A stretch of DNA of 64,000 nucleotides from Escherichia coli (GTDB lineage Bacteria; Pseudomonadota; Gammaproteobacteria; Enterobacterales; Enterobacteriaceae), in NCBI RefSeq assembly GCF_024223415.1, contig NZ_CP100501.1; one strand, given 5' to 3'. Position numbers and translations under genes: made by a program. Positions 6,781 through 6,849 of the stretch are shown here, piece by piece. The notes under the pieces are model-generated. The model saw only the letters and a program-made list of their open reading frames with translations. It did not search any database and had not been told where the DNA came from. Position 1 is the first letter of the stretch, and every line of letters begins with the position of its first letter.

Positions 6781-6849
6781 TCCATCTTAACTTCCAAAGG
6801 GTACTCCCGCCGACATAAGGCGGGAGTACCCTTTGGAAGTTAAGATGGA
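6781..6849. repeat. perfect palindrome: 31-bp arms separated by a 7-nt loop
   Basis: TCCATCTTAACTTCCAAAGGGTACTCCCGCC gacataa GGCGGGAGTACCCTTTGGAAGTTAAGATGGA verified base by base. Confidence 0.85.

Follow-up and report, generated by a model that had tools for sequence, protein, structure and literature searches.

A perfect palindrome on Escherichia coli plasmids derives from the left end of an IS200/IS605-family element and is probably a head-to-head LE-LE' scar

The described sequences closest to the locus analyzed here are the ends of IS200/IS605-family elements and short repeats related to them. In IS608, the cleavage site is located 19 nt 5' of the foot of the hairpin, the corresponding distance at the right end (RE) is 10 nt, and guide and target tetranucleotides are AAAG and TTAC, respectively. 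The transposase TnpA joins the 3'-OH of the cleaved target to the 5' phosphotyrosine-linked left end (LE; PMC3201880). REP doublets, or BIMEs, are high-copy, chromosomal, intergenic sequences made of imperfect hairpins and a linker, and are associated with RAYTs; a REP made perfectly palindromic is refractory to cleavage by a related RAYT enzyme (PMC3333891). PATEs are mobilisable mini-transposons which feature both LE and RE (10.1101/2023.03.14.532601).

The DNA under study, called here the window, is a stretch of 64,000 nucleotides from contig NZ_CP100501.1 of the E. coli assembly GCF_024223415.1. A first-pass annotation, made from the letters alone, had marked a palindrome with 31-nt perfectly complementary arms and a 7-nt loop at 6781-6849, between an IS256-like remnant and the 3' end of trbC. 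Both the structure and its setting were borne out. A repeat search of the window returned the inverted repeat 6781-6811 / 6819-6849, 100% complementary, with the loop GACATAA, and in p135-2, a plasmid of identical sequence, an IS256/IS1414 transposase pseudogene is followed by an unannotated gap and trbC. The arms are unique to 6781-6849 within the 64-kb window, gave 0 matches in 100 shuffles, and the chance expectation for such a palindrome in 64 kb is ~2.5e-13; the runner-up perfect hairpin in the window has 18-bp arms. Predicted folding energies are -38.8 kcal/mol (z = -13.3) as single-stranded DNA and -61.7 kcal/mol as RNA. The outermost T6781/A6849 pair is fortuitous, because it is missing from copies in other contexts, and the biologically defined unit is the 67 bp from CCAT to ATGG (6782-6848), in which the insert between the two CCATs measures 59 bp. 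The flanks read AAAACC and, on the opposite strand, AGGATG. Recurrence of the pentamer GACAT had also been pointed out, and the motif is present at 6774-6778, 6812-6816 and 6855-6859; its three sources are unrelated: the left copy belongs to a right-end tip, the central one to the loop of the LE hairpin, and the right one to the region around the start codon of a truncated restriction gene.

The modules of the region are listed in Table 1. Both strands read CCAT, an 18-nt LE segment, and an LE hairpin of 8-7-8 nt; right end and genes are absent. The right arm is an exact mirror of the LE 5' 18 nt plus CCAT, and the palindrome-specific junction reads GGCGGGAG-TACCCTTTGG. The LE hairpin is identical in all the IS copies from E. 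coli, Klebsiella and Photorhabdus, and occurs only once in the window. The left CCAT is native plasmid sequence residing within the older right-end tip, and the same CCAT is found in the absence of the palindrome in plasmid pRM10042-1 (locus L012), which also retains the remainder of the older inverted IS remnant, deleted in the window. On the right side, ATGG covers codons 4-5 in the truncated gene for a type II restriction endonuclease, and is regarded as native because L012 and plasmid pA16EC0070-1 (L011) feature ...CCAGTTATGGAAAACC... without the palindrome. The second right-end-like hairpin is present also in L011, L012 and L014.

Table 1. Sequence modules in and around the palindrome (window coordinates)
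Feature	Position	Strand	Evidence or remark
CCAT, target/left cleavage tetranucleotide (CL) flanking LE	6782..6785	+	CCAT before 16/16 LE junction contexts
IS left end (LE), 5' 18 nt, CTTAACTTCCAAAGGGTA	6786..6803	+	Identical in full IS of L003, L015, L021
GGTA, last four bases of the LE 18 nt	6800-6803	+	Position of IS608 guide GL, directly 5' of hairpin foot
LE subterminal hairpin CTCCCGCC-GACATAA-GGCGGGAG, 8-bp stem, 7-nt loop	6804..6826	+	Palindrome centre
Reverse complement of LE 5' 18 nt	6827..6844	+	Stands where the native IS has GGGAATTTGGACGGGC...; makes a second LE on the - strand
CCAT on the - strand (ATGG on +), second target tetranucleotide	6845..6848	-	Native sequence
Right-end last 14 nt (ATGGAGGATGTCAA) from an older inverted copy of a related IS	6772..6785	-	13/13 to RE tip
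Restriction endonuclease gene start codon (CAT 6857-6859) and upstream region	6849..6948	-	L011 annotation and sequence
Second right-end-like hairpin, CCTCCAC...GTGGAGG-ATGTCAA (end), directly after trbC stop	6949..6989	-	IncI/K backbone
trbC, 757 aa, context gene	6993..9266	-	Annotated in the identical plasmid p135-2
IS256-family (IS1414) 3' remnant, context only	6526..6738	+	RefSeq annotation of identical plasmid

In megablast searches against 72,556 plasmids the palindrome alone was found again in unrelated contexts, and the left arm, loop and next 8 nt were found in an IncI2 plasmid, directly beside the annotated tnpA and tnpB genes of an IS200/IS605 element. This segment (6782-6826) is identical (45/45) to CCAT plus the LE of full IS copies. 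Comparison of full copies from E. coli, Klebsiella and Photorhabdus defined the element as CTTAAC...GGAGGATGTCAA, 1,818 bp in E. coli, carrying divergent genes for tnpA (Y1/HUH transposase) and tnpB. The TnpA product (L003, 3093-3497, - strand) matches Pfam Y1_Tnp over its full length (E = 1.1e-38); TnpB (L003, 3556-4782, + strand) matches OrfB_IS605 (8.6e-33), Cas12f1-like TNB (4e-24) and HTH_OrfB (1e-16). Within the IS200/IS605 family the parent IS is an ordinary representative of the IS605 group, and it is often carried by IncI2, IncI-gamma/K1, IncF and phage-like plasmids. Neither its tnpA nor its tnpB is found anywhere in the 64-kb window. Two identical IS copies reside in the IncF plasmid p_STEC276 (L024) in the same orientation, at ~20005 and 35974 of the locus, 16 kb apart; one of them appears to disrupt the tra operon in the trbI-traR interval, probably within traC, and the other lies in the leading region near psiB.

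The boundaries of the IS are marked by two empty sites. In the chromosomal dadA gene the insertion reads ...GCGATCCCAT/IS/ATGAGGATC..., with the junction ...CCCAT/IS/ATGAGG..., and removal of the IS restores the dadA reading frame. In the IncI-gamma/K1 copy located between hha and trbA (L021, L022) the junction is GGGCCAT/IS/ATGAAG. An uninterrupted homologue of the latter site is present in the window itself at 12283/12284 (- strand, ...GGACCGT/ATGAAG...), where CCGT replaces CCAT and a small ORF is intact. The dadA and hha-trbA sites together show that insertion takes place 3' of CCAT without target duplication, and that the IS lacks terminal inverted repeats. CCAT is found 5' of LE in all 16 junction contexts, and bases further 5' vary. 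The ends themselves, CTTAAC... and ...GTCAA, are not inverted repeats. The LE hairpin is set 18 nt from the end, and the RE hairpin is followed by 9-10 nt finishing in TCAA. By sequence, the presumed cleavage sites thus lie at a fixed distance from subterminal hairpins at both ends. As in IS608, the hairpin is subterminal, the target tetranucleotide lies 18 nt (19 in IS608) 5' of the foot, insertion occurs 3' of the target without duplication, and the RE finishes in TCAA ~10 nt after the hairpin. By analogy, GGTA may pair with CCAT in the same register as AAAG with TTAC. In predicted folds the native LE is a quasi-palindrome, TCCAAA-GGGTA-(hairpin)-GGGAA-TTTGGA, which continues past the hairpin with GGGAATTTGGACGGGC... 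and in which the internal loop GGGTA/GGGAA exposes the presumed guide. In the window palindrome this loop is closed and the stem is lengthened to the target. Unlike the IS608 LE, the window LE is mirror-duplicated, with an LE on both strands, no RE, and a base-paired guide.

The palindrome form was found in 16/72,556 plasmid records, where native LEs occur in ~145 records, and in 15/5,426 complete E. coli genomes, in which the examined full-coverage copies are all plasmid-borne. A search for further copies had been suggested by the first-pass annotation, and the 16 records resolve into four plasmid contexts. Exact-pattern scans of metagenome and viral collections for the palindrome-specific junction gave 0 matches, and an LE-pattern scan of 100,044 species genomes found no perfect palindrome. 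The latter scan returned only LEs of the IS type (six Photorhabdus loci, one Klebsiella) and one derivative, in L006. This derivative of the same IS, 112 bp long and devoid of genes, resides in the Photorhabdus thracensis chromosome (reverse strand of the locus, ~8081-8192). It features a full LE through a second hairpin (TCAGC-N3-GCTGA, loop flipped) followed by an inverted LE tip, ends in CCAT on both strands, and represents a second type of LE-LE' structure.

Ancestral states can be read for several of the contexts. In the first, the window and pRM10042-1 (L012) share the flanks ...TTGACATCCTCCAT and ATGGAAAACCGACAT..., which enclose 59 bp in the window vs 200 bp in L012. Part of the 200 bp is what remains, in inverted orientation, of the 3' portion of a related IS (RE tip 13/13; 47 nt 94% identical to the tnpB 3' region), and the rest is ~16 more codons of the type II restriction endonuclease gene. 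This gene is intact in pA16EC0070-1 (L011), and 5 codons of it are left in the window. A complete restriction-modification pair lies at the same position in pA16EC0070-1 (L011), and the module has therefore been lost in the lineage of the window. In the second context, a phage-plasmid (L001), relatives of the L017 type carry 166 bp of a small ORF at the palindrome site; ATGG is native in 28 relatives, and the sequence is ATGA in L017. In the third, pINF237_02 (L002), the palindrome joins a ColE1-type left flank to a right flank from a different plasmid lineage. The left flank of the fourth (L016) lies within an IS2 transposase gene. In all three contexts with a traceable ancestor, the CCAT of the left junction and the ATGG of the right junction both belong to the native sequence. 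ATGG has a frequency of 0.0045 per nt in the window, and three native coincidences correspond to p ~1e-7; the right junction is therefore not random.

Arms differ according to the host. Palindrome arms in E. coli (CTTAACTTCC/GGAAGTTAAG) correspond to the E. coli IS variant, Klebsiella arms (CTTAACCTCC/GGAGGTTAAG) to the IS variant of the K. pneumoniae ATCC 13883 chromosome, and in Klebsiella palindromes CTTAACC/GGTTAAG is found on both arms. This leaves two possibilities: at least two origins of the palindrome, each from the IS variant present locally, or continual copying of one arm onto its partner.

The origin of the palindrome from the left end of the IS is firmly established by sequence comparison; its mode of formation we infer. 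The palindrome is a gene-less scar replacing ~200 bp of plasmid DNA, and is neither a terminator nor the end of the neighbouring IS256-like element. It is probably a head-to-head LE-LE' pair of the 1,818-bp IS200/IS605 element, produced as a by-product of aberrant TnpA activity lacking RE. Both ends are CCAT-to-LE junctions of the type made by TnpA chemistry. In the scheme proposed, two LE strands, or one snapped back at its hairpin, would be transferred to CCAT targets on opposite strands and would pair via the self-complementary hairpin. Repair synthesis would then copy each 18-nt LE segment onto the partner strand, yielding a perfect palindrome bounded by targets, and the DNA between the two CCAT targets would be lost, or two molecules would be fused. 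The scheme would also account for arms that end exactly at the target. Alternatively, once a palindrome exists, each LE might capture upstream CCAT sites and delete flanking DNA.

Several observations speak for the LE-LE' reading, among them the native ATGG at the right junction of all three traceable contexts. DNA has been replaced at the palindrome sites (200 bp relative to L012, 166 bp relative to L017-type loci) or chimeric molecules have been joined (L002), as expected for a scar. Presence of the Klebsiella IS variant on both arms of Klebsiella palindromes indicates that the arms are templated. A partly corrected LE, with changes in the internal loop only, was sought among the 145 plasmid LEs and none was found, so that no stepwise intermediate is seen. 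L006 of Photorhabdus is a second LE-LE' derivative with CCAT on both strands. Some points weigh against the same reading. It presupposes LE-LE synapsis and two-strand target capture by TnpA, a single-strand enzyme, and both strands must be single-stranded locally or at different times. A template switch primed by 4-nt microhomology would also leave a native ATGG at the right junction, and tnpA is absent from the 64-kb window. The four contexts may not all be independent, as two copies reside on one Klebsiella plasmid and flanks could have exchanged.

Similar products could be generated by other routes. Nearly precise excision of Tn10, which starts from a composite transposon and is transposase-independent, leaves a 50-bp palindromic remnant of the outer ends of two inverted IS copies. 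The palindrome resembles such a remnant in being a short palindrome of outer IS ends left after loss of the interior. A comparable event would require two inverted full IS copies, with LEs facing outward at opposite-strand CCATs, and deletion of the interior by slippage or snap-back at the 8-nt LE hairpin stems, which are direct repeats in the inverted-pair arrangement. The exact sequence, native CCAT on both strands and loss of intervening DNA are all predicted by this route, and the stems CTCCCGCC/GGCGGGAG would provide the required 8-nt direct repeats. It is nonetheless unlikely, as two independent opposite-strand insertions 166-200 bp apart are needed, in at least two contexts. Unlike Tn10 remnants, no inverted IS pair was seen, and the ends coincide with TnpA targets on both strands. 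Plasmids usually carry one IS copy, as does pESBL3215, and the only two-copy plasmid examined (p_STEC276) has its copies in the same orientation, 16 kb apart. No two-IS precursor was seen at L012-type and L017-type loci among 128 and 410 related records, respectively. We consider equally improbable, or slightly more so, a replication error independent of TnpA, in which a nascent strand would fold back at the LE hairpin, copy the left arm through CCAT and re-anneal at a downstream ATGG, so that the palindrome is perfected and extended and the IS body is deleted along with flanking DNA. Quasi-palindromes are classic substrates for template switching, and the native LE quasi-palindrome is a fitting one; arms are templated copies, and right junctions share 4-5 nt of identity with the ancestor. 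Against this, the copied arm ends right after CCAT in all four contexts, where random switching would give variable end points; the 1.8-kb IS body should offer ~8 closer ATGG sites for re-annealing, but none of the junctions falls within the IS; and 0/145 LE copies are partly corrected.

That the palindrome might be a MITE- or PATE-like miniature element, mobile as a 59-67-bp unit, would fit the presence of four sequence contexts with the IS target sequence at the boundaries, but is very unlikely: the right end is absent (the RE tip at 6772-6785 is pre-existing backbone, as in L012), ancestors differ by the loss of 166-200 bp or are chimeric rather than showing simple insertion, and the sequence is very rare, with 16 plasmid records and 0 hits in the metagenome, viral and 100,044-species genome scans. 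Least credible of all is a functional element selected by host or plasmid, whether as a structured RNA, as a site bound by a plasmid protein, or as a terminator or insulator behind trbC. High stability of the hairpin and its location between convergent units would fit such a role; related IncI/K plasmids (L011, L012) nevertheless lack the palindrome at this position, and its sequence is wholly IS-derived. No terminator-like site, promoter-like site or T-run was detected in the interval 6400-7200, and the missing T-run had already been noticed in the first-pass annotation. No Rfam family reached the gathering threshold in a scan of 5500-8000 at E <= 10. The sub-threshold matches, mir-5984 (52 bits vs 95) and mir-2849 (17 vs 100), are generic long-hairpin look-alikes.

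Several functions had initially been put forward for the palindrome. A known terminator and a structured RNA both lack support, given the scans above and the L011 and L012 plasmids. The proposal of a mobile-element terminus was right in that the sequence is the LE of an IS200/IS605-family element, and wrong for the adjacent IS256-like remnant, of which it is not the terminus. A role as recombination or protein-binding site appears plausible, from the sequence, only in the form of a TnpA substrate. Active maintenance, thought necessary for a palindrome of this size, is not required: the window-type palindrome is identical in ~ten plasmids from different isolates, mostly from chickens, and is therefore stably inherited. 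E. coli tolerates palindromes that stay well below ~100 bp. Concerning the IS256 (IS1414) terminus, similarity to L012, which has no such remnant, starts at 6739, 43 bp before the palindrome, and the palindrome occurs also in L001, L002, L014 and L016 with no IS256 remnant nearby. A Pfam search with the 59-aa ORF of the remnant gave no match, the IS1414 label coming from RefSeq annotation of the identical plasmid.

Among short repeats, REP doublets and BIMEs are similar to the palindrome in having two inverted hairpin units, with a tetranucleotide (GGTA here) 5' of each foot; in theory either strand could serve as substrate for a Y1 enzyme, and both types of sequence trace to IS200/IS605-like ends (PMC3333891). 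Unlike BIMEs, the palindrome is perfect, rare and plasmid-borne, derives from an IS encoding tnpA and tnpB, has the TnpA of that IS as its cognate enzyme, and is located at deletion junctions. Like PATEs, it is a short non-coding IS200/IS605 derivative which keeps end sequences; unlike them, it features two LEs and no RE, and is not found at simple-insertion sites (10.1101/2023.03.14.532601). No description of LE-LE' fold-back scars, of the palindrome sequence, or of the parent IS on IncI1/IncI2 plasmids was found in the literature, coverage of which was incomplete.

A large palindrome left blank by annotators on IncI/IncK-type plasmids can now be assigned to a specific transposon family. It marks a deletion that removed an IS remnant together with what was left of a restriction-modification module. 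Recurrence in four contexts bounded by TnpA targets on both strands suggests that IS200/IS605 elements, which carry TnpB, can bring about target-specific deletions and plasmid fusions and leave no transposase gene behind. LE-LE' scars could mark past TnpA activity and provide a natural experiment on the origin of REP/BIME-like doublets. More speculatively, and with doubts prevailing, IS200/IS605 TnpA might synapse two LEs instead of LE and RE, joining them to targets on opposite strands to give target-bounded deletions or fusions capped by an LE-LE' palindrome. This would be an undescribed pathway, and a plausible source of REP/BIME-type doublets. Should one of the rival explanations hold instead, the palindrome would be no more than a good illustration of how a palindrome can form at the end of an IS.

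Today the palindrome is most likely an inert scar, because guide GGTA and CCAT are predicted to be locked in a 30-31-bp stem when the DNA is single-stranded. In the predicted folds the guide is base-paired in the palindrome stem, whereas it lies in the internal loop of the native LE. With TnpA from a resident IS, the palindrome could still be weakly active as a nicking site or as a hot spot of recombination. Read outward, LE tip plus target (GGAAG/GGAGG-N5-ATGG) feature a Shine-Dalgarno-like purine run, a 5-nt spacer and ATG. Such tips are found in the window (6835-6848, + strand, GGAAGTTAAGATGG), in L002 and L016 (GGAGGTTAAGATGG) and in Photorhabdus (GGAGGAAAAGATGG), and the pattern is kept across three genera in spite of different spacers. 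It may initiate translation in the outward direction, or may have arisen coincidentally from constraints on TnpA recognition. In both the window and L001, reading frames beside the LE tip are no more than 6-11 codons long, and the ATG of L002 falls within an annotated ORF.

Other repeats are found in the neighbourhood. The 10-mer CCGACATAAG is present at 6810-6819, where it spans the LE hairpin loop and adjoining bases, and 34 nt rightward at 6853-6862. There it belongs to the native backbone, overlaps the truncated restriction gene at its start codon, and is shared by L011 and L012, which have no palindrome. The local chance of such a repeat is roughly 1e-4, which makes it hard to dismiss as coincidence, and it might have helped to tether an LE strand beside the second CCAT target. 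Downstream of trbC there are two RE tips (GGAGGATGTCAA) of IS200/IS605 type, at 6949-6989 and 6772-6785 (both - strand), which share the same orientation and are separated by 178 bp; elements of this type have thus entered the intergenic region more than once. The trbC-proximal RE-tip hairpin is conserved in IncI/K backbones. A second perfect hairpin is located at 4760-4798, in a region without a convincing ORF; it has 18-bp arms (TTTCCTTGTGGTTTTTAT / ATAAAAACCACAAGGAAA) and a 3-nt loop. Just upstream of the palindrome region, a complete IS3-family element (5256-6469, - strand) is inserted in the IS256/IS1414 remnant. It encodes orfA (108 aa, HTH_Tnp_1) and orfB (296 aa, rve), and includes an ALIL frameshift pseudoknot (Rfam RF01497, 116 bits) at 6072-6188.
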